A program made the translations under genes and the position numbers. Shown here one piece after another: positions 1 through 21,721 of a stretch of DNA of 43,574 nucleotides. The DNA lies in NCBI GenBank assembly GCA_964497635.1, contig CAZCDB010000004.1:1-43574 (forward strand), read 5' to 3'. The stretch comes from an uncultured Planctomycetia bacterium. Its GTDB lineage: Bacteria; Omnitrophota; Gorgyraeia; 2-02-FULL-51-18. Below the pieces are notes generated by a model that worked only from the letters and a program-made list of their open reading frames with translations, ran no database searches and had not been told where the DNA came from. Position 1 is the first letter of the stretch. The number at the start of each line of letters is the position of its first letter.

Positions 1-3000
1 CCAACCGCGCGCCGCTGACAGACGCGTCTACAAGAGCGGTAAATCTTTCTTTTGTCATCTGCTCTGATGAAAGCCCATCGAGGGTTTCTACCTCATTTAG
101 AATCTTTTGAAGAATAGTCGCGGCGCCTTCTCCCGTAGACGATTGGATCAGATGTTTTGAAACAATCGCTCGGCGATCAGCCGCATCCAACACAGACGCC
201 ACAAAACGACCATCCCCGCTTTGAGCATCAGTCCCCAGAAAATCAACAGCGATGATAAAACTTCTCTTTGGACTCTCAATACCCAAAGACCGAGTAATCG
301 CTTGAGCCGTGCGGCGGCTGCCTAAACGCGCCTTAAGATCTGCCAATTGGGCTTGTATGGCAAGAACTGTCGGTCTTGGCACCACAGTCCCGGAATCTTT
401 AAGAGCTCCAAGAAGATCGTCGTTTGTGGGCCCCAAAAGTCCTTCCAATATATCGGAGACATCGGCAAATGCCTTTTGTTGAACACTCAAAGGTTTTGCG
501 CGGTCATAGGGCAAGGCTCTGGATTCTAAAATAGTAAGATACCCAAATTGCGCGGTCTCGTCTTTTTTAAGCTCGAACATCCCATCACGTTGGTAAGGAA
601 TCATTTTTTCTTCCCTCAAGTCCAACATGTACAAAGTGTATGGCGCCCGCGAAAACAAAACCTTTGAATCACCATTGGGCTGCTGCTCTGAAATAAATTG
701 TACGATTTGCACATAAATTTTCTGCTGGGTGGAATAAACAGTCACTAGCTTATCCTTATCCACTTGCGCGGTAAAAATGTAATCATCGCCATTCGGAGAC
801 GTTTCCCATTGCTCCAAAGGCAAGGAATCCAAAACCTTGACGCCATTGTTGCTCTTTTTTTGTAATGAAGCTAGCACGCCCTGATGATGACGAATAAAAC
901 CGAACGGCTCGGTAAATGGGATTCTGGAAGAATCAGGCGCTGTGGCTCGACCCAAATAAAAACCACCGCCTGCCAAAGCCAACCCTGTGGCCAAAAAGCC
1001 CCTTCGCTTTACTACCCCAGAAACGAGGCGTTCCTCAATGGACCGAGTATCCCTACTAGTTGTGCTAGATAGTCGTGCGGCCCCAAACCTGACCGCAAAA
1101 TATCCCTCATTGTTTATATTGTCGACCAACATCGTGGCTTGAGATTTAGGAGGCTCCAAGACCTTGGGTTTCAGCGAAGGAAAAATCGTGGCCCTTTGGA
1201 GAGCCGCCGTAATTTCAGGTTTGTTTGCGCCATTCAAAAGAATTACATTAAAACTTTGTGAGCCCATAGATAGGAATAAAATGGCCACAGGACTCTTCTT
1301 GTCCAAAAGCACTCGAGCTTTTAATCCTGAGGCAGGCACGCTAAAACCATTAATGTACCTAGAAACAAGCTCGCTAAAACTACTACGAGTGGGGATATCC
1401 TGCAGATCAATCGTCCGTACCAAAAAGGCTCGCGCTGAGGTTAAATCAGGATTTTGCAATTGACGCTGAGCAACCGTTTTAAAACTCAACCGCGCGCCGC
1501 TGATTTTTACAGTTCCGGTAATATTTTCAAATAGAAACTCAACTTCTTGGTTGGCGCTGTAGCCTCCGACGGATTTATTTAGGACCACTCTAAAATAAGT
1601 GGGCTTGCCGTCCGACTTATTTTTGCCAACAGCAGTTACCTGTCCTGAATAAGTTTCGCCTTGATAGTCGAAAGATATGATTCTGTCTGGCACCAATCCT
1701 TGCCGGACAATTCTGTCATTCTCTGCAATCTGATCAGGCTTGGGATCATCTCTGTCAGGCTCAGGTTGTGGCTGAACAGGCGGTATTGTCGGAGAGCTTC
1801 CGACCTTGCGCACCAGGATAGGCTCACCAAATACAATCTCCCTAAATTGGGCGCGTGCCCCGTTTGGATTCCGATCATTTACAACGGTAAAAGACCCCGA
1901 AGAAACAGACGCACCGACCGACTGAACTCCGGTAATCCGCCCTACAAACAGTCTTCTATCAGTGGTCCTATTATTAATGTAGTAGCCTGGCGCAAATGTA
2001 AACTGAACCTCCACATCGCTTTTTCCGACAGCTGATTGGATTAGCGCAACGACAGCTTCCAAGCGTTGAATTTGTGTATCTTGAGGCAATTTCTCTGTGT
2101 GCCCACCCACCACTTGAAGCACAAGGCCTCTATTTAGATTTGTATACGGATCGGGCACGATTTTTCCATGAACGATCTGTGAGCCGTATTTTACATTGAC
2201 CCACTGACCCTCAAGCTTCGCCAGATCCGACTCCGAGGCTGTGTAGTAAATTTTTGTTTCAGAGGTCGGGGGTGGCGGCGGATCCACAGGAGTGGGTTTT
2301 TTAAAATCCGGATTAGGGCTTCCCAAAAAGTCCGTTAATGTAAAAACATTTCCATTATTAAGCAAGCGCAGGGTTGTAGAGGTCATCGAAACCACTTGCC
2401 CGCTTGCAGAATAAGCCTTAAGAGCCTTCATCTGCTCTTCGGTTAAGCCGATAGGCCCTCCCAACAGTCTTCCAAGACCCGGTACAAAATTAAAGCTGGC
2501 AAACTTTCTGGAACCCAGAGGACCCACCGGCTGATAAGTCAAAATCATGCCACGACGGTTTTGGGCGAATCTTACGATACTAAAAATCGGAATAGTCACC
2601 TTGGTGATAGACCCATATTTCATGAGGGTGACATGATCGCGATCAAGCGCATGAAGAATGCCGTTGGTATAATAATATTTACCATCGGATGCCACCCAAA
2701 TCAATCCAAGAGTATTGGTCGTGTAGGGCTTTAGAGCCTGGAAATTTTCAAAAGTTGGCCTCGCAAAAGGTTGAGTCGTAACGACCGAAGTATCCGCTGC
2801 TTGCAACTCTTGAATCTGGACGTCCGCCTGAGCTCTTTCTCTGCTTAGAGTTTCCAGGGAATTGGCAATCACTCGGTCAAGGGGGATAAGCACAACCTGA
2901 TCCCCGGAGCTCTGTGTTCCCTGAAAAGTGTCACTGCTAAGATCAAAACGATCCACCCGCCCCACAAATGGACTCGCTATGCCACGCTTTTGATACTCTA

Positions 3001-6000
3001 GAACCACTTCGGTGCCCGTCTTCATAGCACCGACAAGTTCCTGTCTTAATTGATCCAAATTCAGCATCTGACGGGTAATCACATCGAAAGTGATCTTGAT
3101 TTTTGCGCCTTCCGAGGTTCTCAGCTGGATTGAATTTTGATCGACGGCCTCCACACGACCTTGAACTCTCTGCTCCTGCTTTTGTTTTTTGACGGTAACC
3201 GTCCGCCAAAGAACCAGCTCGGCCCCACTCTTTTTAAACAATTCAAAATTTTTCTGAGTCGGGTCCGCATACACCTGAGAAAGAAGCTCTTCATCAGTTC
3301 TATTGTTATCTTGCACAGTTAGCGCTTGGGTCTGAACACTCCGCTGACTCACAGGCTTTTCTTCTATCTCTCTTCCCGGATCCTGCCCAAATAAGCTAGC
3401 CCCAGACGTCACCGCCACTGCCGCTGCTGCAGCAGTAAAACTCCCACTCCAGCGACGAAGTCTATTGGATAAACCTTTCCCGAAAATACTCTCGAGTAAA
3501 ATTGTAAAATCGGATAGTTGAAAGTCATTCCCTTTCAACTTTGAACTTTCACCTTTCAACTCAGGATCCGCCAACCGTGCGGCGCTATCCGGAACCGTTT
3601 CCTTGGCACCCTTTGATTCTGGCTCCACCAAGCGCAAAGCCGCAATCGCATTGTCAATAGAGGCTTTGGCTCTCAGATAAATATCCGCAAGACCCTGCAC
3701 ATCTTCTCTTTGTTGTCCCCCAAGGCTCTGTGCAAATCCAGAAAGACCGACTTGGGTGATGGCGACTTCATTTTCTATGCGGGAAAGAATCCTGAAAGCA
3801 GAGCTATAAGCTTCAGTAGAAAATCCTGCAGAAAAAGACCTTGCACCAGCCTGAAGTCGCTCCAGATAACTACCGGTCAATTCATTTAGTGACGCCTGAG
3901 AACCATCGCTTGGCAAGGTATACCCTTGGCCTACTTCTTTGGAGGCTGTGAGCTCCTTTTGAGCTTCTACAAGGTGCCTATAAAAATCGTCCCTGGCAGT
4001 AAGCGCTTGTGCAGACGCCAACCGTGCGCCAGCCAAACCGTTGCCGTCTTGATTCATTGCCCAAGGCTTTCCCAACCGCCTTACATTCAGCCATTTAACG
4101 AGAGTCGCCAAAGGACGGCTATCAGTATATGCATGTAATTTAGTCTCAACGCTTTGAAGCGTTCCATCAGAGTTAATGGTTATCGTTAGATCATCGAACT
4201 CACTTCGACCAATCTGATAAGTAAGAACTTGGCCGACCGGTTCGTCCCTAAGATAAATTTCAATCTCTTCGTTTCCATAAAATTTAAAGTTTGCGCTTCT
4301 CACAACCCCTGATGCTGTATTGGATCCTTTTATCTCAAGGGGTACGATGCTGGAATTCATCAAAACAATAGTCCCCTTGTGCTCACCTTCGTTTCTCTGC
4401 AAATCAACTATCGGCTGGACATATCGAATCGATTCATCGCGGGGAAGCAAGGTATCCAATGTCCTCCGAAGTGTATCGGGCCCTTCTGCTGAGCCGGACA
4501 GATAGGTTATGGGCTGGGTCTTATCCAAAAAGCTTATGTTCAATGTCAATGTCCACATGACTCCCGTATCAGTCATTTCCGCGCCAACAGCGCGAACAGT
4601 CTCGTTGATCAGCTCTTCACGAGAAAGGGGTTTTGCCAACCGTGCGGCATGGGATACTCGCATCTCCACTGCTTCCTGCATTGCGACTGCCATGGCCAAG
4701 GAACTGCTGGCTCCCGCAAACATGGCTTGAGGCAAATTCTCAGTGCTTAAAGGCCTCCCCTCCACATCGGTAGGATTCAGCTGAACGTAAAATCGGACCT
4801 TGGGCTCGGTGCCAGAAGGTCTGGCGGTGACATAGTCATTGCCATCGATCCCTTTGGGACCAAAATAAAATCGGACACCCTCCTCAGGAAAAAAGTTTAA
4901 AAGACCCTCGGGATTATCACGCCACCGTGGCTCGTTTAACAATGCTTTCAAATCTTCATAATACTTATCGACCGGAAAATGCTCCGAAAACTCAGGGTCC
5001 GTATTCTTCTGATCAACTGGGATCATAACTTGGACACCGGTAACTTTTTTCTTAACTACTTCGCCATTTTCAAGCACATCTAAAAATATTTCACGCCCTT
5101 TAGCAAAATCCCTGGCCATTTCCAAAATAGCTTTGATCCACGTGTATTTTTCGATGGTCCCTGCCGGGCCATTATCAAAAGTTTTGGGTTGATTGGTATC
5201 CGGAAAAAGTCCTATCTCCTGCTCAAGATACATGTCTTTAACCAGATATTCATGCAGTGTCATGCCCTTTTCCTTGGCATAGGCGAGTACTTCCAAAAGA
5301 AGGAAGGAGGCCATCGGACCGTCTTTGTCCAGCGTATGACCCATATTGCCCATTTGGTGAGGAATGAAACCAAAAGTGGGATCCCCATGCGCCGAACCAG
5401 GCGTTTCCACGGCCAAGCTCCTTAAAGGAGTCCAAAACTCGTCGTGGGACGCGGTGCGTTTTGCGGCATAGGCCCTGGAAAGCTTGAATCCGCCATCGGC
5501 TCTTTCCAAAACCCCTTCCTCTGATAAAAACTCAAGGGTATCTCTGAGCGATTGTGCGGAGTAATGATAATATTTTGCGACCTCCGTGGTCAAAAGACCG
5601 CTGACTTTGTTGTTGGCAACGATTTGATCTCCTGAAATCCTCAGGTTAAGCCCGTCGATCTTTTGAAACTGACTCATGATCAGGTAAAACGGCGGCGGCG
5701 CTCCCATATAACTAAATCCGCCGCTTTCCTCAGCCATAGACAAAACCACTTTCCCTTCTTCCCAGGCTCGCTTGCCTTTCTCGGCAAGCAGTGAAAATCC
5801 GACATAGGTGTTATCGATTTCCACTTGAACGCCTCTTTTTTTCCCATAATTTACCAAAGCTTTTAAGGCATCCGTAGTGACATGGCTTTTGATGATCACG
5901 AAAGGCGTGTCTTTCTCTATCGATCCAGCGGCTATTTTTTCGGCAAAACGGTCTATGCGGTATTTTGTGATCAAAGTCCATTTATCATTGGCGGACAATA

Positions 6001-9000
6001 AGCGCAGACCGCTAAAGCCCAGGCGCTTTGCCGCTTCTGGATCCCCAGCCGCATATGAAATAAGAAGCGCCCGCCGCTGAGCCTCCTCTTTAGGCAAAAA
6101 TTCTTCCGGTATGGGCACGCTCGCTCCGGCACGATCCGCATCAGGATCCGTTCCTATCTGAACGTCTATGCCTCCGAGAGCTTCGACAGGATCATTGTTT
6201 GTATCCTGAATATGCTGCTGGATTGCCATCTCGACAGCGTCCGCGTTTCCCTTTGAACTGCCTGGATCCGGGATCTGGGGGTTGCCTTCTGCGTCCAGCT
6301 GATTGGAAAAGATGGGAAACCGTCCGTCCATCCGGGCTACTTCCTTCGCGATCTTGACATTCTCATCTTTAAAACCCAATTCTTTCAAAACTCGAGTGAA
6401 TACCCGTAGACCAACCCCATAAAAAGGCATGTATAAAAGCTTGATATTGGGTGCCTGGCGACGAACCAGATCTAGATCCGCAAATTGGTTGAGAACGTGC
6501 TTCACATAAATGGAAATAATATCTATTTGGGCAGGGGTCTTGGCGTCTCCGGCATTATTTTTTTCTCCCAGAATAGTCACCTGTCTGGGGCTGCCCTCAG
6601 AAAATTGCCTCACCAAGGGTCCGCGATAAATATTTTGTTTTAACGTCTCCGGGGTATATGCGTCGGATTCAACTTGCGCAGAAGCACTGAGCACCTCTTC
6701 AATATCATTCAGTTCCACGGGAGGGACATAATCTTTCGCACCCACAGCCCCTTTCCCATAAGTGTGTTCAATGACCCCATTACGCTCATTAGGACCTAGC
6801 TGAGCGCCGTCCCCTCCAAAAACCTTAAAACCTCCGTACCGGTAATCATTGTGAGAAGCGCTCAGAAGTATCCCCACGTGCGACTTCACGTAAGCGGCAC
6901 CAAAAGAAAGGACCGGTGTCGGGGAGGCTTGGTCAAAAAGATAGACATTAAAACCATTTCGGATGAATACAGCCGCAACAGCATCAGCAAACGCCGGATT
7001 TTGAATACGGCTGTCATAAGCCAGCGTCATCACGGGAGGCCGCCCTTGTTTTTCAGCGACCTTCTTGTAGTAACGGGCCGTGCCTTCCGCCAGCCTCATA
7101 AAAGTAATGCTGTTGATGGTCTTCGGCCCTTTCAGGATTTCAGCTTGAAATCCTTTTTCTAGCAACTCATTGGCTTCTTCCATATTAAAAACAGTGAACT
7201 GCCTAGGGCCGGCCGTTCCAAAAACCACCTTACTGCTGTGAGCGGCGGTGATATGGCCAAAACGTTGTTGAGCGAGAGCCTTCAACAGACCTAACTTCGT
7301 GTATTTGTCAATAGCAGGGCTCTGAAGCCAGTCCATCACGCTTTTGACGGTAACACTCACAATGCTATCACTAAGTTTCTTTCCCTTTCTTTTTTCATCT
7401 TCAACATATTTGCCAACACCAACCTGCAAGCGAGTCCGAATCCTCTTTTGTTGATTGTCGATAAGTCCATTCAACCTCTGTTCGGAGATAAAAGAATTTA
7501 TATTTTTTCCAAGAAGGTAATAAGATGCCAACCGCGCGCCGGTAGGATCCTCTTTGGAGAGCCGTGCGGCCGCCAAAATAAATTGCTCACCACGTACAAC
7601 ACCAGCTTGATTGGCTAAATTTTCAACCGCCTCGGGACGAAGAGCCAAAGCAAGAGCCCTCTGCCCATCCACTCCGGCCTTCAAAGCGCGGCCTTGCACC
7701 GTTTGCACTATTTTGATTTGTTTGGCGAGGGGTGAAAGAAGCACTTTTTCATACTTGGCTTGATTGGTCTCGGAGGTGACATTGGGGGCCACCACCACAT
7801 ACGAATAACCCTTTTCCCTTAAGAGCTTGGCCAAATGACGGGTGTGGTAGCCGCCGGCGATAAGAGCAGCTATTTTTTTGTTCTTCATCACCTTCTCTAC
7901 ATTTTTTATAAAAGCAAAATCTCGCTCATCCACCACCCGATAAAACTTCTCAAGTACCTGGCGGCCTTCTTCGAGATGCCTTTCAAGCGGGATAAAGCTC
8001 TCCGTCAATCCTTCATCAAAAAGAGCTTTATTTAGGAGAGCTTGCCAAGAAATGGTGGGAAAATCGGGGGTATTTTCTAAAAAAGAAGCAAATTCATCTG
8101 AGGTCATCTGGATCCGATAGGCGGTCTCAAGAAGTGAGAGGTAGCGATCTACGGCGTGCAAAGTGTGCGCCTGGGTATGATCCAAGAGTTGGGTATAAAC
8201 CATCTGCTCAAGCTTCTTGGACTCTTCTAAAAGCTTCTCCATATCAAGCTTTGAAAACTTTTCAAGATAGACAAAATAATTTTGAAATTGCGGAGTTGCT
8301 GAAAGACTTAAACCGTGTGCTTTGGCAGCCTCCGCGATCTTTTTAAAATAAGCCAGCTGTCCCACTCCCTTTTGCTTGGGCTGGAGAGCCAATTCCTTGG
8401 CAAGATTCCCAGAGTCTTTGGCACCGACTTTTTCAACCAAAGAAGCAAGCTCAAGCTGAGCTAGGGAGAAATCAATTTTTTTCTCTTCGGCCAAAAGAGC
8501 GGAGAGCCTTGTGATTTCTTTAAAATCAGAAAATTCGATCCCCTGCCCCTGAGCCAACTGAGCCAGTTTTTCAGGCGAGCTGATGCGCCCGGACGCTTTT
8601 TCATAAGCAAGTAAAGCGTGGGGATAATGTCTTTTTTTAAGCTGTTCGACGGCCGCTCGTGAGCTGACTAAATAATTCAAAATAGTTTCGCGCTTCTGCG
8701 CCAAATCCGCATAGGCCAGAAGACCCTTTGAATACAGATCGAGATCTTCAATGCCGGTAAGCTTCATGTCTCGTGAGGAGGTAAGATTGAGATACTCTTC
8801 TCCCGAGATCTGGGCTTCACGTAGAAAGCGCCCAGCGACTCGTTTGATAACAGAGGCGTCCGCAAGCTCTCTTAAGGGAGTCAGGGTGACATCCCCCTCA
8901 CCACCCTCCACAAACACGTCGGAAAACTGATAACGATCCATCAAGGCATCCAGCGTCTTGGCCAGATTTTCCTGCCCCGAAAGATTGGCGTGCGCGTCCT

Positions 9001-9265
9001 GAATCAGAACCACCAAAGGTGCGGGGACTCCGCCACGCATGGGCGCTTGATAACCCTCTTTGTACTGACTAAATTGAGTGGGGACTTGAAAGGAAGAAAG
9101 ATCAAGAGCATTCAAGGTCTTTTGAGATGCTCCGGACGCAGGAAAACCCGAAAGAGAGGCCGCGTGAAGAATATCGGAAGAAAGAAAGGAGCAGAGGAGG
9201 AAGAAAGTAAGAGGTTTAACAAAGCCTACTTGAAAGACTCGCTTCCAATCCGTATTCTTGTTCAT
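1..9265 (-). CDS. Giant multidomain exported/membrane-associated protein 'A', 3'-truncated by the window edge (>=3088 codons visible). Absent from the supplied ORF track because no stop is reached.
   Basis: ATG at 9263-9265 is preceded by GAGGGCGAGGAA. Manual translation of this minus-strand frame runs to position 1 without a stop. None of the supplied minus-strand ORFs in 1..9265 (1636..1878, 2943..3209, 5250..5435) lies in this frame. The N-terminus MNKNTDWKRVFQVGFVKPLTFFLLCSFLSSDILHA|A is signal-peptide-like. The first ~535 aa are paralogous to ORF B. Confidence 0.85.
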   Translation of the reverse strand, partial: MNKNTDWKRVFQVGFVKPLTFFLLCSFLSSDILHAASLSGFPASGASQKTLNALDLSSFQVPTQFSQYKEGYQAPMRGGVPAPLVVLIQDAHANLSGQENLAKTLDALMDRYQFSDVFVEGGEGDVTLTPLRELADASVIKRVAGRFLREAQISGEEYLNLTSSRDMKLTGIEDLDLYSKGLLAYADLAQKRETILNYLVSSRAAVEQLKKRHYPHALLAYEKASGRISSPEKLAQLAQGQGIEFSDFKEITRLSALLAEEKKIDFSLAQLELASLVEKVGAKDSGNLAKELALQPKQKGVGQLAYFKKIAEAAKAHGLSLSATPQFQNYFVYLEKFSKLDMEKLLEESKKLEQMVYTQLLDHTQAHTLHAVDRYLSLLETAYRIQMTSDEFASFLENTPDFPTISWQALLNKALFDEGLTESFIPLERHLEEGRQVLEKFYRVVDERDFAFIKNVEKVMKNKKIAALIAGGYHTRHLAKLLREKGYSYVVVAPNVTSETNQAKYEKVLLSPLAKQIKIVQTVQGRALKAGVDGQRALALALRPEAVENLANQAGVVRGEQFILAAARLSKEDPTGARLASYYLLGKNINSFISEQRLNGLIDNQQKRIRTRLQVGVGKYVEDEKRKGKKLSDSIVSVTVKSVMDWLQSPAIDKYTKLGLLKALAQQRFGHITAAHSSKVVFGTAGPRQFTVFNMEEANELLEKGFQAEILKGPKTINSITFMRLAEGTARYYKKVAEKQGRPPVMTLAYDSRIQNPAFADAVAAVFIRNGFNVYLFDQASPTPVLSFGAAYVKSHVGILLSASHNDYRYGGFKVFGGDGAQLGPNERNGVIEHTYGKGAVGAKDYVPPVELNDIEEVLSASAQVESDAYTPETLKQNIYRGPLVRQFSEGSPRQVTILGEKNNAGDAKTPAQIDIISIYVKHVLNQFADLDLVRRQAPNIKLLYMPFYGVGLRVFTRVLKELGFKDENVKIAKEVARMDGRFPIFSNQLDAEGNPQIPDPGSSKGNADAVEMAIQQHIQDTNNDPVEALGGIDVQIGTDPDADRAGASVPIPEEFLPKEEAQRRALLISYAAGDPEAAKRLGFSGLRLLSANDKWTLITKYRIDRFAEKIAAGSIEKDTPFVIIKSHVTTDALKALVNYGKKRGVQVEIDNTYVGFSLLAEKGKRAWEEGKVVLSMAEESGGFSYMGAPPPFYLIMSQFQKIDGLNLRISGDQIVANNKVSGLLTTEVAKYYHYSAQSLRDTLEFLSEEGVLERADGGFKLSRAYAAKRTASHDEFWTPLRSLAVETPGSAHGDPTFGFIPHQMGNMGHTLDKDGPMASFLLLEVLAYAKEKGMTLHEYLVKDMYLEQEIGLFPDTNQPKTFDNGPAGTIEKYTWIKAILEMARDFAKGREIFLDVLENGEVVKKKVTGVQVMIPVDQKNTDPEFSEHFPVDKYYEDLKALLNEPRWRDNPEGLLNFFPEEGVRFYFGPKGIDGNDYVTARPSGTEPKVRFYVQLNPTDVEGRPLSTENLPQAMFAGASSSLAMAVAMQEAVEMRVSHAARLAKPLSREELINETVRAVGAEMTDTGVMWTLTLNISFLDKTQPITYLSGSAEGPDTLRRTLDTLLPRDESIRYVQPIVDLQRNEGEHKGTIVLMNSSIVPLEIKGSNTASGVVRSANFKFYGNEEIEIYLRDEPVGQVLTYQIGRSEFDDLTITINSDGTLQSVETKLHAYTDSRPLATLVKWLNVRRLGKPWAMNQDGNGLAGARLASAQALTARDDFYRHLVEAQKELTASKEVGQGYTLPSDGSQASLNELTGSYLERLQAGARSFSAGFSTEAYSSAFRILSRIENEVAITQVGLSGFAQSLGGQQREDVQGLADIYLRAKASIDNAIAALRLVEPESKGAKETVPDSAARLADPELKGESSKLKGNDFQLSDFTILLESIFGKGLSNRLRRWSGSFTAAAAAVAVTSGASLFGQDPGREIEEKPVSQRSVQTQALTVQDNNRTDEELLSQVYADPTQKNFELFKKSGAELVLWRTVTVKKQKQEQRVQGRVEAVDQNSIQLRTSEGAKIKITFDVITRQMLNLDQLRQELVGAMKTGTEVVLEYQKRGIASPFVGRVDRFDLSSDTFQGTQSSGDQVVLIPLDRVIANSLETLSRERAQADVQIQELQAADTSVVTTQPFARPTFENFQALKPYTTNTLGLIWVASDGKYYYTNGILHALDRDHVTLMKYGSITKVTIPIFSIVRFAQNRRGMILTYQPVGPLGSRKFASFNFVPGLGRLLGGPIGLTEEQMKALKAYSASGQVVSMTSTTLRLLNNGNVFTLTDFLGSPNPDFKKPTPVDPPPPPTSETKIYYTASESDLAKLEGQWVNVKYGSQIVHGKIVPDPYTNLNRGLVLQVVGGHTEKLPQDTQIQRLEAVVALIQSAVGKSDVEVQFTFAPGYYINNRTTDRRLFVGRITGVQSVGASVSSGSFTVVNDRNPNGARAQFREIVFGEPILVRKVGSSPTIPPVQPQPEPDRDDPKPDQIAENDRIVRQGLVPDRIISFDYQGETYSGQVTAVGKNKSDGKPTYFRVVLNKSVGGYSANQEVEFLFENITGTVKISGARLSFKTVAQRQLQNPDLTSARAFLVRTIDLQDIPTRSSFSELVSRYINGFSVPASGLKARVLLDKKSPVAILFLSMGSQSFNVILLNGANKPEITAALQRATIFPSLKPKVLEPPKSQATMLVDNINNEGYFAVRFGAARLSSTTSRDTRSIEERLVSGVVKRRGFLATGLALAGGGFYLGRATAPDSSRIPFTEPFGFIRHHQGVLASLQKKSNNGVKVLDSLPLEQWETSPNGDDYIFTAQVDKDKLVTVYSTQQKIYVQIVQFISEQQPNGDSKVLFSRAPYTLYMLDLREEKMIPYQRDGMFELKKDETAQFGYLTILESRALPYDRAKPLSVQQKAFADVSDILEGLLGPTNDDLLGALKDSGTVVPRPTVLAIQAQLADLKARLGSRRTAQAITRSLGIESPKRSFIIAVDFLGTDAQSGDGRFVASVLDAADRRAIVSKHLIQSSTGEGAATILQKILNEVETLDGLSSEQMTKERFTALVDASVSGARL
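2..13 (-). other. [AG]ARL[AS] boundary motif, copy A8 (GARL, cut by window edge)
   Basis: The minus strand reads ggc gcg cgg ttg g.., in frame with ATG 9265 (residues 3085-3088). Confidence 0.8.
1067..1081 (-). other. [AG]ARL[AS] boundary motif, copy A7 (AARLS)
   Basis: gcc gca cga cta tct, in frame (residues 2729-2733). Context FGAARLSSTT. Confidence 0.8.
1484..1498 (-). other. [AG]ARL[AS] boundary motif, copy A6 (GARLS)
   Basis: ggc gcg cgg ttg agt, in frame (residues 2590-2594). Context KISGARLSFK. Confidence 0.8.
1511..3298 (-). other. Region of loosely repeated small beta-rich (SH3/Tudor-like by pattern) units inside ORF A
   Basis: About six recurring segments of the type GRVEAVDQNSIQLRTSEGAKIKITFDVI, GKIVPDPYTNLNRGLVLQVVGGHTEKL and GQVTAVGKNKSDGKPTYFRVVLNK. 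This is similarity by eye only. Confidence 0.3.
3569..3583 (-). other. [AG]ARL[AS] boundary motif, copy A5 (AARLA)
   Basis: gcc gca cgg ttg gcg, in frame (residues 1895-1899). Context PDSAARLADPE. Confidence 0.8.
4016..4030 (-). other. [AG]ARL[AS] boundary motif, copy A4 (GARLA)
   Basis: ggc gca cgg ttg gcg, in frame (residues 1746-1750). Context GLAGARLASAQ. Confidence 0.8.
4634..4648 (-). other. [AG]ARL[AS] boundary motif, copy A3 (AARLA)
   Basis: gcc gca cgg ttg gca, in frame (residues 1540-1544). Context VSHAARLAKPL, directly after the phosphohexomutase-like module. Confidence 0.8.
4773..7228 (-). other. alpha-D-phosphohexomutase (PGM/PMM)-like module inside ORF A
   Basis: Family signatures are all present and in canonical order. 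Phosphoserine loop SASHNDYRYGGFKVF (Ser codon 6854-6856). Metal loop GTDPDADR (~6129-6155). MAEESGG. Phosphate-binding loop ARPSGTEPKVRFY (~4788-4826). Confidence 0.8.
7526..7540 (-). other. [AG]ARL[AS] boundary motif, copy A2 (GARLA)
   Basis: ggc gcg cgg ttg gca, in frame (residues 576-580). Confidence 0.8.
7556..7570 (-). other. [AG]ARL[AS] boundary motif, copy A1 (AARLS)
   Basis: gcc gca cgg ctc tcc, in frame (residues 566-570). It sits at the position equivalent to copy B1 in the paralogue. Confidence 0.8.
7661..9097 (-). repeat. Paralogous N-terminal domain, copy in ORF A (partner 15272..16708)
   Basis: Colinear with ORF B residues ~58-536. Long identical runs include LIQDAHANLSGQENLAKTL, YQFSDVFVEGG, KKIDFSLAQLELASLVEK, LSLLETAYRIQMTSDEF and ALIAGGYHTRHLAKLL. 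By eye roughly two-thirds of residues are identical (not computed). The similarity is visible at DNA level too. Confidence 0.9.
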
Positions 9266-9298
9266 TTCCTCGCCCTCTCTCTTTTTCTTCTTAAGTTT

Positions 9299-12200
9299 TT
9301 AAGCCGCGATGTCCAGAGCTCGCATCATGCGCTCAAGACGTAGCGCTTGCTCAAGCGTCACACGTACCAGAGGCACAGCCCAAGCCTGAATCCATCCTTG
9401 GGCGTTTTGGACTTCACCGCTTAAAAACGCGATGATGGCCGGGCGGGCATCTCCGGTATCAACACCCACAGGGAAGAAAGAAACGTGCTGGGCAACAAAT
9501 GCCGCCGAGGGATCCTTGGGATTTTGTAAAGATGCTGTTAGGGTGTGGAAAATATCTCGGGTGTAAATGCTGGTCGCCTCTCCATCTTCGGTGAAGGCTT
9601 TGAACGGCAAGTACCCTTTGCCCTGCACAAGGCTGGAGAGATTTGCGGTGGATGCCATATTAAATTCTTCGGCCACCCGTCCGGTTGTGGGATCTACCAC
9701 CTTCTCATCCATCCCCACGACAACATTTTTTGAAGATAAAATGTTCAAAAACACTTGGACCGTTTTATCCGCAAGCAATTCTCTGCCGATCTCGACGCGA
9801 AAGCGGAAATTGGAAACATCTTTCGCGTTTGAGATCTGAAGAAGCGCAAACAACTGACCCACCAACAACTGCTTCTGGCGCTCCAAAGACTGGACTTGCC
9901 CCACGCGATCAGCAATTCGAATCACACGAAGCGCGTTGGTCTTGAGAACCGCTGTCTCTTCTAAGGTGGCATCAAAGAGCCCAGCAGCTGCCTGGATCTG
10001 AGCCTGGCTTCTTTGGGAAACCTGTGTTAAGGCTTCGGTGTCCTGATCCTTCTCATCCACTGCCTTTTGGTCCCTGTCTGTCGGGGCGTACAAAAGCTCA
10101 GCTCCATCCGTACCACCCACAAACACATTGCCCCTACCATCAGGCCTGGCCGATACGGAAAAGTCTCTCGTCCCCGATGCCAAAGCAATGGCCGCACTTG
10201 GCAACCCGCTTTGCGCAATGGCGGTCAAAACAGCTCCATTACCAGCAAGAGTCAAAAATGGTTGTACAGACACCCTTCCAACAGGGGCTGGTAAAGTAGC
10301 GTTGGCCGCAAATCTAATACCCGTCGGCTTCGTCGATGACTCAAAACGCTTTGCAGCTGATGGAGACGCCAAGCGTGCCGCAGCAATGGCGGCTTGCACA
10401 GTGTCAATGGTGCTCTTTTCAGCAACCCTAAAAGCCTCTGCCCCATCTTTTAAAAGCCTATCTCCAACCGCATCGATTGAAGTGTTGTTGGGACCTAAAA
10501 CCAGCTCGTTCAAATCCAAAAGCACCTGATCCGCGGTAATCGTGTCCTCACTATCCAGCTCACGGCCATCTCGCAGCAGAATCTGGCGCCAGACATCGTG
10601 ATTGTCAGCGGTTTGAATAAGCTTTGGTAGACCCTTGCGGACCAACTGCTTGTCCGCTACATTTTGCAGTTGCTCATCCGACTGAGATTCTACGTAAAGC
10701 GCCGTCGCTTCAAATGCATCTTGGGGAAGCGTGTTGAGATTTCTATCACCCAAAAGAGGCAATACGTAGCTCAAAGGATCGGCGTAGGGCTGTTTATCTT
10801 TCTTGGTGCCGCTTGAAGCGATCAGAAGTCTCTGTGGATTGGCACCTTGCAAACGAAGCGCGCTAAAACGTCCGCGGAGATCCTCGATTTTTTCAAGAGT
10901 CGCCGGATCCAAAAGACCCGGTTGAAGAGCAAGGTTTTCGTTTGAATAAATGGACTGAATCACGCGGTAAGCCAGCTGAGTTTGCGCAATCGCCACTTTG
11001 CCACGAAGCATGCTGATTCTCTCCTTTATTTCTGGCGTGCTAGCATCTCCCTCTGCTTTTAGGATCAGAGGATCCACAGCGATATCCACCCGGCTCACAA
11101 AAAGCGAAAGCACGGAATGAATATTGGCTAGAGGATTGCCATCCACATTTCGATTTTCAAGACCTTGGATATAAGCTTCAATGTTGTCTAGAACATGCTG
11201 GGCCGTAAAAAGCAACGTCACATTGACGCTGATCCCCTCACGAGTTGCAAGCTCAACAGCCTGGACCCCAACCTTACGGTCTGCGTCAACAACATTTCCG
11301 ATCTTAACGTAACCAAATACGCCATTGGCTCTAAAATTCTCATGAATGGTGCGTGCCTCCGCCAAGAGCTCTTGAGGATCCAGGGTATTTGGCGAGGTTT
11401 CATGTGAAGCTCGGCCTTTGTTGACTCTTAAAAGCTGGGCAGCTTGAACAGCCACTTTGGCGTACAAGGCCAAATAAATATCGCGAGCGCTATTGCCAGC
11501 TGCTTTGCCAGTCATCGCCTGTTGATAGATTTCAGATTTTGGATCTGAAATATACTTTTTGATCACCGCATCAATAAGACTTTGATTGGTCGTAATATCT
11601 TGAGCACCCAACTCTTCAATAAAAATTCGGACATAATCCTGCCACGAAAGATTGGGGTCTCTAAGACGCTCCTGAAGAAGCTGGTTTAGCTGCGGGCTGT
11701 TGATCTTAGAGGGTACGCCATCCAGAACAAAGGCATCATGATGAAGGCCGTTGGACTGAAGCCGTGTCAGCCTCAAAACAGAAGTTTTCGGAAGATCTTT
11801 TGCTGGAATAAATATGCGCGGCGTCCAAAAGAAGCCATTCTGGTCAAGCTCTTCAAACGCAGCCTCTGCCGCAGCCTCCGCAAACGAAGCAGAAGACGTT
11901 TTTAATTTAAAACTGATGTAGCTCTGAGGAGTCAATTCCCCATTCTGAGCTTGGGCCAAAAGCTTGGGCTCTAAGATCACATTTTCATAAATAACTTGAG
12001 CATTCGGACTAAGGGCCAAGCGTGCCGCAACAGCTTGAGTTATTTCCTTCTTGATCTGTCTTATTTCTTTGACAGGAACCCCAAGAACCGTCCAGAACTT
12101 TTTGTTCTGTACAGCTTCTTCCAGCTGCTGATAGTTGTGATAAACAATCCCGTCTCGACCTAGATTTGAAAGGATCCACGCCAAAGAAATAATCCGGGCT

Positions 12201-15200
12201 TTTTCTTCGGGGGATTTATCAGGCGCCAGAACTTTATCAATGCTGGATAACTCGTTGATCGTTTGTACATCGGTACCCACTGGATGAAATATTTTGCTGG
12301 CAGTGATAAATAGGGGGTTTTCACCGGGGACATCCAAAAGATAAGAAGCCTGCCTTTGGGCTTTGATGACCGCTTCTATATTTTCGAATTTTTTTCCTTC
12401 CCACTGGGAGGTTAACTGCTTAACAATAATCACTCTTAAGGACTCCTTGGGATCTGATTGAGTGACTGCATTTAAGATATCCACAAAAGGAACTTTGTAA
12501 GCATCCAACCATGTACCGCGACCAGAAAAAGATCCTGTGGCTCCCTTGATATTCTTAGCAAAAAGCTGGAAGCGGCGAGCAATCGTGCCTGGATTTCCAC
12601 CACTTAGCATGAACATCAGACGTTTGCCAACAAGGTCATTAAATATTTTAAGCCACTTTATTTGGAGTTTTTCATCCGCAATGTCGCTTCCGGGAAAATG
12701 CTCTTTATCGATATCGGCATCAATGCCAAGTCTGCGAATCGCTTGGATCATCTTGAGCGTGTTGTTGTAAGCCCATTCACGACCCTCAAAGGTTTCGAGG
12801 TATTTTTGACCATTAAGGGTTGGAACAGCATTGACAGCATCAAGATTGATTTCAGTGGATCCATCTGCCGCATAGCGACGGGTCTTAGCATGAAGCACTT
12901 CAGGGGTGACAAGAAAACCATTTTGATGGCCGATTTTAACGATATCTTTAACCGTTGTAAAAACAGGCTCAAGCCTCTCATCTGGCACAGAAGAATCCAA
13001 GTACACCATGATCTTGAGAGCTTTTATCTGCTGGATATGAGAAATGGCTTTTAAGAAATCATCCAGAGTTTTAAAACCAAGATCCTCGTGAAGAGTGCGA
13101 GGAGCGTTCCCAATCTCACGACCGGCCTCAGGCGCGCCATCCTTTAGGGCACCGTTGGGGGTTTTGCCGGATTCTAACTGAATAAAAAATTGGGAATCAG
13201 CGAACACAGGAAGATCTGGGTGAAGAATGATTGGCCCATACTCAGCCTCGGTAATCGCTCCCGCTTTTTGAGCGGCAATAATATCTGGGTGGCTGAGCGA
13301 AAGAAAAACATTATTTTTCACATAACCCATCATATTCTTCGGACTCACAAGAATCGCATGGTTATAGTCGGATATACCAGTAAACAAGCTGAGCTGGAGC
13401 TGCGGCTCGGTCAAACCAGAGCTTTTAAGCATCTCCCCTAGAAAATAAACAGCTCCCTGGTCGCCAGGGGTTACATTGCGATGACCCTCGGGCATCAAGC
13501 TCACGAGAGCTTTCCGCCGACCCTCACCAATCTGCTTCCACCAATCGGCGCCCTCGACATAAGGCCCATCGATGTGATCAAAAGGCTGACGTGCGAGACG
13601 AGCCGCAACAGTCGGAGCATAACTGCTTCTGGAAATATTCATACCGCGGCTATTCACAACAAGCGTTGAGACGTTGAGGCTGCCATTCAGCGATTCAACA
13701 CCGTTATCCGGAACAACTTGACCTTGTTCCGTTTTAAAAGTATTGGAAGAAGGAATGATGAAAGTCTGATAAAAATCAGCCGGAGGGACACTTTCAAGTG
13801 TAAATATTTTTTCTCCACTTTGAATGGCCTGGATATCCGCTTCACTGAAATAAGGTTGCTGGGTGGTCGGGTTGATGCGTGAACGAAGGGCTTCTAGATC
13901 TTCCGCTGAAAAAGCGAGTCGGTTATCCATATCTGTACTTGTCCGAGTGGACGAAGTTTTGACATAAACACCACTGCCCGCGGCTGTCTCCTTAACACCA
14001 TAGAAGCCTTGGTCTGAAACAATCTGTGCCACGCCTTTTGCGCCGCTCGAGGCTAGATTTCCTGCCGCTTGAAATGCGCTCATCGTCTCGGTGGCACCAG
14101 CAATTTGGCCGTAAACATGGCGGTCGTCAATAGCCGCGATCAACTGCGGAGTAATGGACCCTGATCCATACGTCGGCACCTTGACTCCCAAAGCGATCAG
14201 CTTTTTATACAACCGCTGATGCCGATGAGGTTTGGATCCATCCACAAGCTCTTTGCCCATGAGCTCAAAAGTGATCTCACTTAGAGGGATATTCGTTGCC
14301 GCAGAATGTGCTTTGAGCCAATCAATAACAGCATCTTCAAGAGAAAGCTTCCCGTCTCTTCCTACCTCAGCGGCATTGCGAGCAACTTTTGAAAAATCAA
14401 AAGTAACCGACCCTTTATAGACCAAAGCAAATGTTCGCAAAGTATCCGGAATAGGGATTATTTCTTTTGCGACCAAAATAACAGAGGTACCACGCCCTTC
14501 ATTTTTTGCAGGGTTTGTGGGATCAAAATTGGCCGTATTATTGGTGCCATCCAGCCCATCATTGCTGATCATGTAGGTAGCCGTGGACTTGCCGCTCACA
14601 GGCTCAAACCTTTCACCCTGTTCAATATAATAAGATCTTGGGTCTCCAACAAAATCAGCAACATCTTTCAACCCTTCAGAGTTGACCGCTACAAACGTGA
14701 CCTGAAACTGATCCGCGAGTCTTTGAAGACCTTCACGATGAATCCGTACCGCCAGCAAATCAAGAGTGTTTTTATCACCCTTTCCAATAAGACCGGACAA
14801 GTGAATCGCCAAGGCTGTTTCTTCTGTGATCTGACGCAGAGAAAATGGGATAAGATCCGCTGACTTAGGCGTTAGATTTGTAGCCAGACTATATTCGCTT
14901 GAACCAAGAGCAGGTGTTACCATCTGTCGCGCTCTTGCAATAATTTCATCAAAATCACTGGTCGTCCCAGGCTTGATAGCCGCAGGAACCACCGATCTAT
15001 TCCCTGGGGTCACCTGCAATGTTGGTGATGGCTCCCTTCCATCAATGAATGGGCTGGTATAATCGTTGGATCTCAGCGGAGATAACGTTCTAGGCAAACC
15101 GCTTGGAGCATTTTCTGGAGCAAAACGCTCTGGATCTTGCTCTGGATCTTCATCCGCCAACCTCGCCGCTGCAACTGATTTATCTACCAATCCCGCGACA

Positions 15201-16867: not shown

Positions 16868-16960
16868 TAGAATCTCCAATTTAATGCAGGTTTACAATGA
16901 AAGATAGTGGAATTGTACATGAGGCTTCCTCACAAAACAAGAGCAGAAAAGTTAAAAATT

Positions 16961-17563
16961 TTACTTTTTTTTAAAAAATAAGATTATCTTTTTTTTAGCT
17001 TTACTAAGCGCTTTTGAGCGATGGCTAATTTTATTTTTCAAGTCTTGTGACATTTCGGCAAAAGTTTTTTTACTGCCTGACGGAACAAAAACTGGATCAT
17101 ACCCAAAACCATGTTCGCCCCGAGGCTCGGTGGCAATATGTCCGTGGCATTCCCCTCTCACACAAGCCACAAATTTTCCACGATCGTAGAGCGCCATACA
17201 AGAAACAAACTTCGCCTTACGCGAAATACCCGGCTTCTTAGCCAAAAGATTTAAAAGTTTTTTGTTGTTGTCCTGATAGCTGCAGTCCTCCCCCGCAAAC
17301 CGTGCCGAATAAACCCCCGGCTTGCCGTTGAGTGCGTGAACCATAAGTCCCGTGTCATCCGCTAGTACAACACTTTGGGTAAAAAGAGAATAGGCTCGTG
17401 CCTTTTTGCGAGCGTTGGCTTCCAAAGTCTTGCCATCCTCCACCGCCTCAGGACAACCCGGAAACTCCGCCAGAGACCGTACGCAAATCTTGCTTGCCTT
17501 TAACAAGGCTGAGATTTCGCGTAGCTTGCCTTTATTGTGCGTGCCCAGAACAAGTTCCTTCAT
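16961..17563 (-). CDS. rdgB: Non-canonical purine NTP pyrophosphatase (RdgB/HAM1 family)
   Basis: 200 aa. Carries THNKGKLREI, VLADDTGL, GKPGVYSARFAG, EPRGEHGFGYDPVF and KNKISHRSKA, which are typical family motifs. Confidence 0.9.
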   Translation of the reverse strand: MKELVLGTHNKGKLREISALLKASKICVRSLAEFPGCPEAVEDGKTLEANARKKARAYSLFTQSVVLADDTGLMVHALNGKPGVYSARFAGEDCSYQDNNKKLLNLLAKKPGISRKAKFVSCMALYDRGKFVACVRGECHGHIATEPRGEHGFGYDPVFVPSGSKKTFAEMSQDLKNKISHRSKALSKAKKKIILFFKKK

Positions 17564-17669
17564 CCCGCTCTCCTAGATTTTGTGCCATAGCATGGGGACC
17601 TGACAAACCCCTTTTTTTGGTAGTATACGAAACGAAGGCCTCTGAAACAACAGTCAGATCATGCCGCGT

Positions 17670-19073: not shown

Positions 19074-19560
19074 GACTCACTTCTTTGCCATTTTTTTCAT
19101 AGTATTTCATCGTCCACTCATGATCCACTTCCGCAATCACAATATCGCGATGCTTTGGCTGCCTTCCTCGTTCTACCAAAACAAGGTCGCCCTCGTGAAT
19201 GCCCGCATCGATCATCGAGTCACCCGATACTTTGATAAGAAAAGTCTGGTCGGGGTGTCTGACAAGATATTCATCAAGGCTCATGGTGTCGACAAGCTCT
19301 TCTTCCGCCGGGCTTGGCCATCCAGCTTGCACCGTGCCCAGAAGCCTGATACCCCCCAATGAAGCAAAAAGAATCTTGCCTTGCTTATCTTTTTTTAGAA
19401 AACCTTTATCAACGAGCTTGTCGACAAGCCAGAAGGCGGCGTTCTTGGATTTATACCGGAAGAGCTTGCGAAGCTCCTCAAAACTAGGCGGGCGTTTATT
19501 TTCTTGAGAAAATTGACGAATCTTCCGCGTGGCTTTATTTAAATCGATGGTTTTTGGCAT
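18979..19560 (-). CDS. lexA: LexA-type SOS repressor (N-terminal winged helix plus S24 self-cleaving peptidase)
   Basis: 193 aa. Cleavage-site context VQAGWPSPAEE (A-G), VSGDSMIDAGI (catalytic Ser) and WTMKYY (Lys). An ATG at 19558-19560 has GAGAGGG upstream. Confidence 0.85.
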   Translation of the reverse strand: MPKTIDLNKATRKIRQFSQENKRPPSFEELRKLFRYKSKNAAFWLVDKLVDKGFLKKDKQGKILFASLGGIRLLGTVQAGWPSPAEEELVDTMSLDEYLVRHPDQTFLIKVSGDSMIDAGIHEGDLVLVERGRQPKHRDIVIAEVDHEWTMKYYEKNGKEVSLVAANKKYAPIKPKEELKIGGVIVAVVRKYK

Positions 19561-19580
19561 GGATAATCCCTCTCATGCCG

Positions 19581-19609
19581 ATTATATTGAACGAACGTTC
19601 AAATGTCAA
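19581..19609 (-). promoter_or_regulatory. Sigma70-type promoter of lexA with a GAAC-N4-GTTC (Cheo-type) SOS box in the spacer
   Basis: The minus strand reads TTGACA (19604-19609), then a 17-nt spacer tTTGAACGTTCGTTCAA, then TATAAT (19581-19586). The inverted repeat TTGAAC-N4-GTTCAA is at 19587-19602. The lexA ATG lies 21 nt downstream of the -10 element. Confidence 0.75.
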
Positions 19610-19639
19610 TCAAGCGCTCAGATAAGTCGCAAAGCTCGT

Positions 19640-20548: not shown

Positions 20549-20566
20549 CTTAAGTCTCCCGACTGC

Positions 20567-21499: not shown

Positions 21500-21721
21500 G
21501 TTTTTCTCCCCTCATAATTAGAATTCGGTTGTATTTCTTTCCGCTCCCGGATTCAGAACAGGAAACACCAAGCGCTCTGCCCGGATCACAACTTCACACC
21601 CTCCGACGACTGAGCGGATCATTTCTTCGGCTCTCACAAACCCTCTTTGCTCTTTGATGGAACTCAGCGACTCAAATTCCTCGTAGGTGACCCGAGCCAA
21701 TACCCCAATTTTGTTATTGTA

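Follow-up and report, generated by a model that had tools for sequence, protein, structure and literature searches.

A recurrent pentapeptide divides giant Omnitrophota proteins into protein-sized units and may mark sites of polyprotein processing

In the polyproteins of picornaviruses, potyviruses and alphaviruses, a cis-acting or leader protease cuts at a short junction motif, and protease and site covary. Among bacteria, the gingipain/adhesin polyproteins RgpA, Kgp and HagA of Porphyromonas gingivalis are cut after Arg or Lys by a protease of the same chain, and adhesins of Mycoplasma hyopneumoniae are processed at S/T-X-F-X-D/E, between the F and the second X. TIKI1 clips eight N-terminal residues, SYPIWWSL, from Wnt3a, and thus cuts between Leu and Ala; unlike RRSP, it is metal-dependent. 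RRSP, a MARTX effector of the same superfamily, is a site-specific endopeptidase (PMC6254334). MARTX proteins (multifunctional autoprocessing RTX toxins) have a C80 cysteine protease domain activated by InsP6, RTX/GD-rich repeats and a type I secretion signal at the C-terminus. Their autoprocessing takes place at several Leu-specific sites (Leu at P1, a small residue behind it) in unstructured segments between effectors, with a preference for intramolecular cleavage (PMC2900308). For the giant proteins of Omnitrophota, which have been proposed to be predatory or host-dependent (PMC10066038; 10.1101/2023.11.21.568195), West-Roberts et al. leave it explicitly open whether they are single chains or cut products. 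Two papers on these proteins raise cleavage and report no cleavage points, and a 2026 survey of long Omnitrophota proteins uses none of the terms 'motif', 'cleav' and 'polyprotein'. Here, we describe a pentapeptide, [AG]-A-R-L-[AS], that recurs in two giant open reading frames (ORFs) in a 43,574 nt stretch of an Omnitrophota genome (contig CAZCDB010000004.1 of assembly GCA_964497635.1, positions 1 to 43,574), hereafter the window, and in many relatives of these ORFs, and we weigh the case that it is a processing site.

The left 16.9 kb of the window is occupied by two tandem minus-strand ORFs, A and B. Each opens with a Sec-type signal peptide that is followed by a common N-terminal domain (NTD) of approximately 530 aa, and the two NTDs share approximately 70% identity. 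The pentapeptide is present in four copies in ORF B and in seven complete copies in ORF A, which also includes an eighth that is cut at the window edge:

9299-16879, minus strand: ORF B, complete, 2526 aa
15155-15169, minus strand: copy B1, AARLA, aa 571-575, in the tether behind the NTD, in a linker with a predicted local distance difference test score (pLDDT) below 50 in the AlphaFold2 (AF2) model
13592-13606, minus strand: copy B2, AARLA, aa 1092-1096, end of the GlpX-like module
12014-12028, minus strand: copy B3, AARLA, aa 1618-1622, end of an orphan 526-aa module
10367-10381, minus strand: copy B4, AARLA, aa 2167-2171, end of the transaldolase-like module
2-9265, minus strand: ORF A, start at 9265, leaving the window on the left, at least 3088 aa
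7556-7570, minus strand: copy A1, AARLS, aa 566-570, first of a double site behind the NTD
7526-7540, minus strand: copy A2, GARLA, aa 576-580
4634-4648, minus strand: copy A3, AARLA, aa 1540-1544, end of the phosphoglucomutase-like module
4016-4030, minus strand: copy A4, GARLA, aa 1746-1750
3569-3583, minus strand: copy A5, AARLA, aa 1895-1899
1484-1498, minus strand: copy A6, GARLS, aa 2590-2594
1067-1081, minus strand: copy A7, AARLS, aa 2729-2733
2-13, minus strand: copy A8, GARL, fifth residue lost at the window edge

An earlier note on this DNA had listed these 12 copies, the last of them cut by the window edge, and all 12 coordinates proved to be exact and in frame. From the amino-acid composition of A and B, 0.082 copies are expected, while 11 were observed (Poisson P for at least 11, approximately 2.6e-20), and 2000 shuffles of A and B never produced more than two. 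All but one of the ARL tripeptides in A and B lie inside the motif, and the other 27 kb of the window contains no copy in any of the six frames. Composition, a match to which the earlier note had listed as refuting its observation, therefore does not account for the copies. A chance artefact of Ala/Arg/Leu-rich protein, in favour of which it can be said that A, R and L are common residues and nothing further, was rejected on these counts and on the hundreds of instances found in relatives, and its probability is negligible.

When the NTD was used as a query, relatives were returned solely from Omnitrophota-type metagenome bins, and the nearest of them likewise carry GARLA, AARLA or GARLT right behind the domain. 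A scan of species-representative genomes yielded 79 NTD loci, often several per metagenome-assembled genome (MAG), in which the NTD heads ORFs that are thousands of residues long and contain up to 16 motif copies; many of these ORFs extend beyond the 10-kb flank. The 176 strict instances pooled from these loci give the logo G (81%)/A, A, R, L, A (82%)/S. Information is limited to the five residues, with 0.04-0.25 bits per position in the flanks from -15 to -2 and from +2 to +15. An unbiased k-mer search (GARLA 104, AARLA 24, GARLS 24 and GSRLA 13 instances, and GARM 45 against 0.8 expected) widened this to G-[AS]-R-[LM]-[AST], and the family consensus overall is G-[A/S/T]-R-[L/M]-[A/S/T]. Per 1000 aa, the NTD ORFs contain 1.72 motifs and the remaining open stretches of the loci 0.127; in the latter, most copies fall in NTD ORFs that were missed by the filter, or in their continuations. 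Double sites behind the NTD, as in ORF A (A1 and A2), are common among the relatives.

When 1.84 billion representatives were searched exhaustively with a profile, 10,113 NTD proteins were recovered at E <= 1e-3, so the family comprises at least this many protein clusters; 6,962 of them have E <= 1e-30. In the best 150 of the 10,113 the NTD is always N-terminal, and the longest of these proteins is 7,364 aa. An independent set of 142 representatives contains 538 instances of the motif in 381,073 aa (1.41 per 1000 aa), with up to 22 in a protein. Searches of the literature for 'AARLA', and for Omnitrophota together with polyprotein, returned nothing relevant.

Other short repeats were seen in the same material. 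The recurrent strings YPGR, AVPSL and DALATA in some relatives are ordinary tandem or HEAT-type repeats and not punctuation. Short repeat-element-like stretches, such as 'HPERSEGSRSFVASAPQDDG' / 'RHSERSEESHHVGGTQDD', are translated in frame inside Omnitrophota ORFs in P0041, P0002 and L045:6650-6930, and the repeat-like PSMNP[RG]GSSGSWR is present in six copies in L045, one of them with an in-frame stop. P0041 carries the annotation NuoD and appears to be a chimera with its joint at a repeat-type element: its NTD stops at approximately residue 215, inside the repeat-element-like HPERSEGS, and it was therefore rejected as an NTD-NuoCD fusion.

Conservation of the pentapeptide is at the level of the peptide. 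The earlier note had reached this view from the varied Arg and Leu codons of the window copies, and it holds across 225 family instances, in which every synonymous codon is used (6 Arg, 6 Leu, 4 Gly, 4 Ala and 6 Ser) and the 30 nt on either side of the motif carry approximately 0 bits. As all synonymous codons are used and the flanking DNA is uninformative, the motif is not a repeat of the kind represented by repetitive extragenic palindromes (REP) or miniature inverted-repeat transposable elements (MITE), and a DNA repeat, including a recombination site, was rejected as an explanation. Yet codon usage inside the motif is skewed to GGC-GCG-CGG-(C/T)TG-GCG, and the skew survives ORF-matched normalisation (GGC 126 observed against 72 expected, GCG 142 against 88, CGG 122 against 52). 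The GC content at third codon positions (GC3) is 0.81 in the motif, compared with 0.60 for the ORFs concerned. The skew may stem from the kinetics of translation, from mRNA structure or from the way in which the motif arose.

The units between the copies resemble complete proteins. At a median of 295-348 aa, the modules are as long as ordinary whole proteins, and none of approximately 17 Pfam domain regions in nine polyproteins spans a motif. By our own arithmetic, random placement would put approximately six motifs inside the first 14 of these regions, where none was observed. In the window, Pfam and NCBIfam searches identified phosphoglucomutase (PGM) domains I, II and IV (A 715-1495), a GlpX-like domain (B 680-933) and a transaldolase (B 1750-2065), none of which crosses a copy. 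In relatives, segments contain one domain type each, among them GT2, methyltransferases, HTH, FHA, HPr, GNAT, J-domain, HATPase_c, histidine phosphatase and RelA/SpoT; in P0126, for example, HATPase_c, His_Phos_1 and RelA_SpoT each have a segment to themselves. The module types of the polyproteins also include kinases, sugar-phosphate enzymes and pre-proteins with Tat (twin-arginine translocation) or Sec signals. An all-against-all BLAST of module regions gave 59 alignments, few because the modules are mostly unrelated, and several of these stop at -1 or 0 from the motif, which is anecdotal.

The positions of the motif thus coincide with domain boundaries in parsing with hidden Markov models, though not as tightly as the earlier note had supposed when it placed module ends within 0-10 residues of a copy: the distance to the motif is approximately 28 aa for the PGM profile and approximately 50 aa for the transaldolase core. 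Of the module names that had been given, 'GlpX-like' is weakly supported (E 8e-6, below the curated cut-off), and 'aldolase-like', for B 1097-1622, has no support. Scores far below the curated cut-offs (149 bits against 367 for transaldolase, 72 against 439 for PGM and 24 against 259 for GlpX) indicate that the enzyme modules of the window are divergent relatives and not standard housekeeping orthologues.

Only within five residues of the motif on either side are hydrophobic residues depleted (0.22 against 0.32) and disorder-promoting residues enriched (0.60 against 0.49). Composition is back to background by +/-10, so the linker is short. In the AF2 model of the NTD (pLDDT 86), the stretch that includes the first AARLA has pLDDT 35-54.

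Long proteins with embedded enzymes are also found where GARLA is not. In L060, a 1310-aa protein (11508-15440) with a phosphoglycerate kinase domain at 630-1052 adjoins a stand-alone NTD gene, which indicates that metabolic enzymes are embedded in lineages without GARLA as well. An ORF of at least 3236 aa in L060 (18-9728) includes Methyltransf_28, GNAT and many HTH repeats.

Several modules begin with features that belong at the start of a protein. In ORF A, two signal-like segments lie behind motif copies:

944-1009, minus strand: Tat-like signal KRRGFLATGLALAGGGFYLGRA (also written KRRGFLATGLALAGGGFYLG), A aa 2753-2774, starting 20 aa behind A7
3386-3466, minus strand: signal-like segment NRLRRWSGSFTAAAAAVAVTSGASLFG, A aa 1934-1960, starting 35 aa behind A5

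Together with the N-terminal Sec signal, these segments would give a contradictory topology to one uncleaved chain. In L001, the closest relative of the window ORFs, a twin-arginine signal stands behind the motif (GARLA-AGAESRRNFLTTTATAVAGLAVGA), and the same arrangement was found in GARLA-KFKLTSRRRFLANAAKLLAGG, GTRLA-SQQGLSRRDFLRGGAG, GARLA-RAISRRGFFTVLTGG and GARLS-GNVPQVTMSRRRFVIGATLLGGG. Textbook Tat signals behind the motif include SRRNFL, SRRRFL, SRRDFL and SRRGFF, and some modules have Sec, Tat or lipoprotein-type signal peptides of their own. Hydrophobic signal-like segments occur in the first 30 aa behind 22 of 87 motifs in the loci set, where 8% was expected, and behind 35 of 213 in the independent set, where 7.5% was expected (binomial p = 1e-5). 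Upstream of the motif they are found at 6%, which is no excess. In L045, the sequence GARLA-SPKK-DYYEVLGV leads into a J-domain (Pfam positions 1-63) that begins 5 aa behind the motif, as in a native DnaJ N-terminus. As would be expected of any polyprotein, the modules appear to match independent proteins with native termini at the junctions, and it is the targeting signals right behind the motif that argue most strongly for a new N-terminus at this point. Internal translation initiation was rejected as a general mechanism, as Met is not enriched behind the motif (0.011-0.020 against a background of 0.019), though relic Met residues precede some of the Tat signals.

The motif differs between proteins more than within them. 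At position 4, L or M is more uniform within proteins than in permutations (p < 2e-4), and at position 1 so is G or A (permutation p approximately 2e-4), while position 5 varies freely. M-type proteins are scattered across the NTD tree: of the nine sites of L022, eight have M and the remaining one V, while in L004, a close relative in the tree, all 11 have L. L-type and M-type paralogues occur together in one MAG in the pairs L013 and L022, and L027 and L023. Other variants are specific to single proteins, including GTRL[AS] (13 copies in P0093), GSRV, GARAA, [AST]RFTE (six copies in L058) and SGAAP. L071 has two giant ORFs (2073-9914 and 11409-21500) on either side of a stand-alone NTD gene, which encodes a signal peptide of its own. 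Both giant ORFs also open with a signal peptide, and their punctuation is [RK]SELR (16 and 7 copies against 0.1 expected). L074, from another MAG and with a sister NTD, has [RK]SELR too, in five copies (fragments in L074:1-2514). As the modules between the sites are unrelated and all sites change together, the reader of the motif appears to travel with the chain.

The shared NTD, which the earlier note had not described, is the best candidate for this reader and for a protease. Its features in the window are as follows:

15341-16867, minus strand: ORF B signal peptide and NTD, alpha/beta core split by a helical insert of approximately 290 aa
16595-16612, minus strand: QDAHAN of the ORF B NTD
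16511-16522, minus strand: VEGG of the ORF B NTD
15455-15469, minus strand: GGYHT of the ORF B NTD
7727-9265, minus strand: ORF A signal peptide and NTD
8984-9001, minus strand: QDAHAN of the ORF A NTD
8900-8911, minus strand: VEGG of the ORF A NTD
7841-7855, minus strand: GGYHT of the ORF A NTD

The putative catalytic residues of the ORF B NTD are D91-A-H93, E121 (28 residues on) and H474. Among 47 NTD sequences the E and the distal H are invariant, conservation of the D and of the first H is 90% or higher, and in alignments of 10 and 11 sequences all four (D, H, E, H) are invariant. The 2His/2Glu signature is found in Bcr135 (H85...E113) and in RRSP (E3900-x-H3902...E3930...H4030) (PMC6254334). 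The ORF B NTD carries a signature of this type (acid-x-His, Glu 28 residues on, distal His), with Asp as the first acid, and the spacing is that of Bcr135 and RRSP, hence the resemblance to the TIKI superfamily. The AF2 model has strands at 28-34, 46-52, 78-81, 130-134, 426-432 and 449-455 in addition to the large helical insert. When it was compared with 350,542 chains using Foldseek, Bcr135 (3b55), EreC (6xcs) and ChaN (2g5g) ranked 3rd, 5th and 39th, all as weak matches, and PF04187 (ChaN, Tiki superfamily) gave a weak match over the C-terminal core of six of the 47 NTD members. The window NTDs have no match in Pfam, the NTD has none in NCBIfam, and a profile search of the PDB returned noise. 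We tentatively propose that the NTD is a distant TIKI/ChaN/erythromycin-esterase-like domain, which would make it the leading predicted protease candidate.

In the NTD tree, one clade consists of stand-alone NTD genes of approximately 520 aa, or of fusions without GAR motifs, and a second comprises fused NTDs; GAR[LM]A is limited here to fused members. Behind the NTD fold, one or two motif copies are always found 40-110 aa away. No match to Peptidase_C80 or to any other peptidase was found in the approximately 90,000 aa of polyproteins scanned, where no recognised peptidase family recurs among the modules, and no protease gene is conserved beside the ORFs, where the only peptidases are self-cleaving S24 and S74 proteins.

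The opposite end of the chain is conserved in another way:

9302-10366, minus strand: ORF B C-terminal domain, 355 aa, with a helix and ...RALDIAA-COOH at the end

Complete family members share a tail of the type [small][small]A (...RALDIAA, ...AVGSSA, ...AIGSAA, ...AIGAAA). An amphipathic helix with a tail of small residues that ends in Ala was found in the window (9302-9391, minus strand) and in L001, L013, L018, L023, L024, L028, L029, L032, L044, L047-L049, L078 and P0060-P0190. Apart from this and a weak GYLP motif, the C-terminal domain of approximately 300 aa varies greatly. It is too divergent for alignment, its alignment with full-length P sequences was spurious, and its single-sequence AF2 model was uninformative (pLDDT 37). 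The tail resembles a C-terminal tag of the ssrA or Tsp type.

A giant ORF of this family is laid out as a Sec-type signal peptide, the NTD, a string of unrelated units and a conserved C-terminal tail. We propose that the pentapeptide signals the junctions in a bacterial polyprotein, exposed between the units, and that an endoproteolytic cut at the motif would free the units as separate proteins. The NTD would read the motif, cutting first the tether at its own C-terminus and then the downstream sites. On balance, the motif is probably a proteolytic processing site at which the chain is converted to protein-sized products. That the NTD acts as the leader protease, on its own tether first and on the downstream sites next, is offered tentatively. 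As to the bond that would be cut (after Arg, after Leu/Met or after the final Ala), the conserved G-A-R suggests Arg at P1, while the pattern of L or M followed by a small residue, along with the Leu common to RSELR, suggests by analogy Leu or Met at P1 as in MARTX.

Several points weigh against this proposal. No orthologue encoded as a split gene was found. Approximately a quarter of the long family members are without a detectable recurrent motif. Among 5.8 billion proteins there is nothing closely homologous to the ORF B modules, and the sole relative of B 1097-2526 is a generic transaldolase with 31% identity, so conservation was checked across paralogues and family members and not across true orthologues. 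The excess of GGC-GCG-CGG shows that something beyond peptide identity is selected. The assignment of the NTD to the TIKI superfamily falls below significance in each single test (Foldseek E 0.13-1.6 and template modelling (TM) scores of 0.17-0.23 for Bcr135, EreC and ChaN; best PF04187 match E 0.0072, 15 bits against a cut-off of 27.7), and the first acidic residue of its signature is Asp, not Glu. Location is a further difficulty. With its Sec-type signal the NTD is predicted to be extracytoplasmic. Many of the modules (J-domain, HPr, FHA, kinase, RelA/SpoT and sugar-phosphate enzymes) are of a cytoplasmic kind, and Tat-like signals on modules, above all, imply release in the cytoplasm, where a periplasmic NTD could not cut.

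There are two ways out of this last difficulty. Processing could take place in the cytoplasm of the producer, before or without export of the NTD, and the products would then follow their own signals. Alternatively, the whole chain could be exported and the units could act in a target cell, as a cocktail of MARTX-like effectors. The conserved terminal regions, the orphan, fast-evolving modules, the paralogues and the proposed predatory or host-dependent lifestyle would fit the second. Whether a large Omnitrophota clade expresses batches of ordinary-looking proteins as self-processing polyproteins, with a TIKI-like leader protease and a site that co-evolves with it, be it as a virus-like strategy or as a MARTX-like cocktail, is more doubtful still.

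The same observations have to be weighed under other explanations. If the motif were cut in trans by a different protease, either a housekeeping enzyme of the bacterium (cytoplasmic or in the membrane) or one of a target cell, the mismatch between a Sec-exported NTD and modules of cytoplasmic type with Tat-like signals would be accommodated, as would the separate NTD genes of L071 and L074. The NTD could then have another role, in membrane targeting, export, ester hydrolysis or binding, and the TIKI superfamily does include members that are not proteases (the haem binder ChaN, the erythromycin esterases, and PMT, which is without the motif). However, one trans-acting enzyme could hardly explain why variants are uniform within each protein, even in differing paralogues of one MAG. 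Apart from the NTD and the C-terminal domain, no part of these proteins is universal, the acid-His...Glu...His set of the NTD is invariant, and the neighbourhood of the ORFs offers no conserved protease gene, so that we regard a trans-acting protease as unlikely. Somewhat less likely again is a motif that remains uncleaved, as a docking or linker element bound by the NTD, the C-terminal domain or a partner, whether to arrange the modules as beads on a string or to bring in a modifying enzyme. Linear motifs are likewise short and exposed with uninformative flanks, and uniformity within a protein would suit any reader acting in cis. Yet Tat or Sec signals and a native DnaJ N-terminus right behind the motif are sensible only if a new N-terminus forms, the double sites 10-40 aa apart beside the NTD resemble redundant cleavage sites with spacer peptides, and the modules have the sizes of whole proteins. 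The earlier note had considered cleavage, docking or sorting, and a helix or linker cap; cleavage is now favoured by the modules' own signals and native N-termini and by the variants particular to each protein, while the helix cap fits poorly with positions -4 to -1, which are rich in Pro, Ser and Thr across the family.

A signal at the level of nucleotides or translation, such as a recombination junction through which gene cassettes are shuffled into the giant ORF, a site of ribosome pausing or skipping, or a marker of internal initiation, would make sense of the codon bias (GC3 and the CGG excess included), of modules that are shuffled and unrelated between paralogues, and of the relic Met ahead of some Tat signals. 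It is highly improbable given the use of all synonymous codons, flanking DNA of approximately 0 bits, variants that are conservative in amino-acid terms (L/M, A/S/T) and the lack of Met enrichment, and we know of no bacterial ribosome-skipping signal. Known export signals do not match either. The earlier note had not recognised a sortase, exosortase or rhombosortase signal, and this stands, as the motif is internal and present in 4-22 copies; the hydrophobic segments that follow 10-16% of the copies look like N-terminal signal peptides, unlike sortase tails. The double-glycine leader site of C39 peptidases, in which a conserved leader (LSxxELxxIxGG) precedes the GG, GA or GS, was rejected, as there is no upstream leader conservation (at most 0.2 bits at positions -15 to -2) and no C39 domain in the scanned polyproteins.

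The genes adjoining ORFs A and B are ordinary chromosomal ones, including Ham1, DinB, an S24 LexA-like protein, an amidase and others. Among them, the gene for the S24 LexA-like peptidase overlaps that for a DinB/IMS-family polymerase (17670-19560, minus strand), and this SOS-type cassette sits directly upstream of the Ham1/RdgB gene and ORF B. Peptidase_S74 cleaves itself and is typically found in phage tail fibres and endosialidases. In the window, a secreted 552-aa protein (36088-37746, minus strand) has a C-terminal Peptidase_S74 intramolecular-chaperone domain (E 6e-13) that has no connection with the motif. Where GC is lowest in the window (0.39 against approximately 0.47), a protein of 849 aa is encoded (25218-27767, minus strand) that contains at least four S1 RNA-binding domains.

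The motif splits thousands of giant proteins into protein-sized units, and it provides an immediate rule for dividing these chains for structure prediction and annotation. It is sharply defined and statistically unambiguous, and it makes the question of cleavage directly testable. If cleavage takes place, this would be a bacterial system for polyprotein expression or effector delivery on an undescribed scale, the motif would supply the missing 'cleavage points' of Omnitrophota giant proteins, and the TIKI superfamily would gain a new class of substrate. The proposed system would be an autoprocessed modular giant protein made from new parts, on an unexpected scale.

The closest functional analogue of the proposed system is MARTX autoprocessing. 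Both involve a giant modular protein with conserved ends and variable central modules, and the L or M followed by A, S or T, uniform within each protein, recalls the MARTX sites. However, the scan of the polyproteins revealed neither a C80 domain nor RTX repeats nor features of type I secretion, and the residue before Leu is an invariant Arg here and a small residue in MARTX. The candidate protease in the Omnitrophota proteins is TIKI-like and N-terminal, behind a Sec signal, the modules include whole pre-proteins with Tat or Sec signals of their own, and the family has thousands of members, found in Omnitrophota-type MAGs only. With the TIKI superfamily (TIKI1/2, RRSP, TraB/PrgY, ChaN, Bcr135 and EreC), the NTD shares the spacing of the signature, and it would also share the alpha/beta core with helical additions that is predicted for it. 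It differs in the insert of approximately 290 aa that splits its core, in the Asp at the first acidic position and in a similarity that is sub-threshold, and no known TIKI member processes its own polyprotein. The gingipains and the Mycoplasma adhesins are likewise bacterial proteins that are cut at recurrent short sites into functional pieces, but their pieces are domains of one surface complex and not unrelated enzymes in a string, and neither a TIKI-like domain nor a motif of this sort is known from them. The closest conceptual analogue is the viral polyprotein with a leader protease. As in viruses, one ORF would give rise to many products through a short junction motif with uninformative flanks, with the protease, here a candidate, in the chain. 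What sets the Omnitrophota ORFs apart from viral polyproteins is that they lie in a cellular chromosome, with modules that are metabolic, signalling or regulatory proteins instead of replication or structural ones, and with several paralogous polyproteins per genome.

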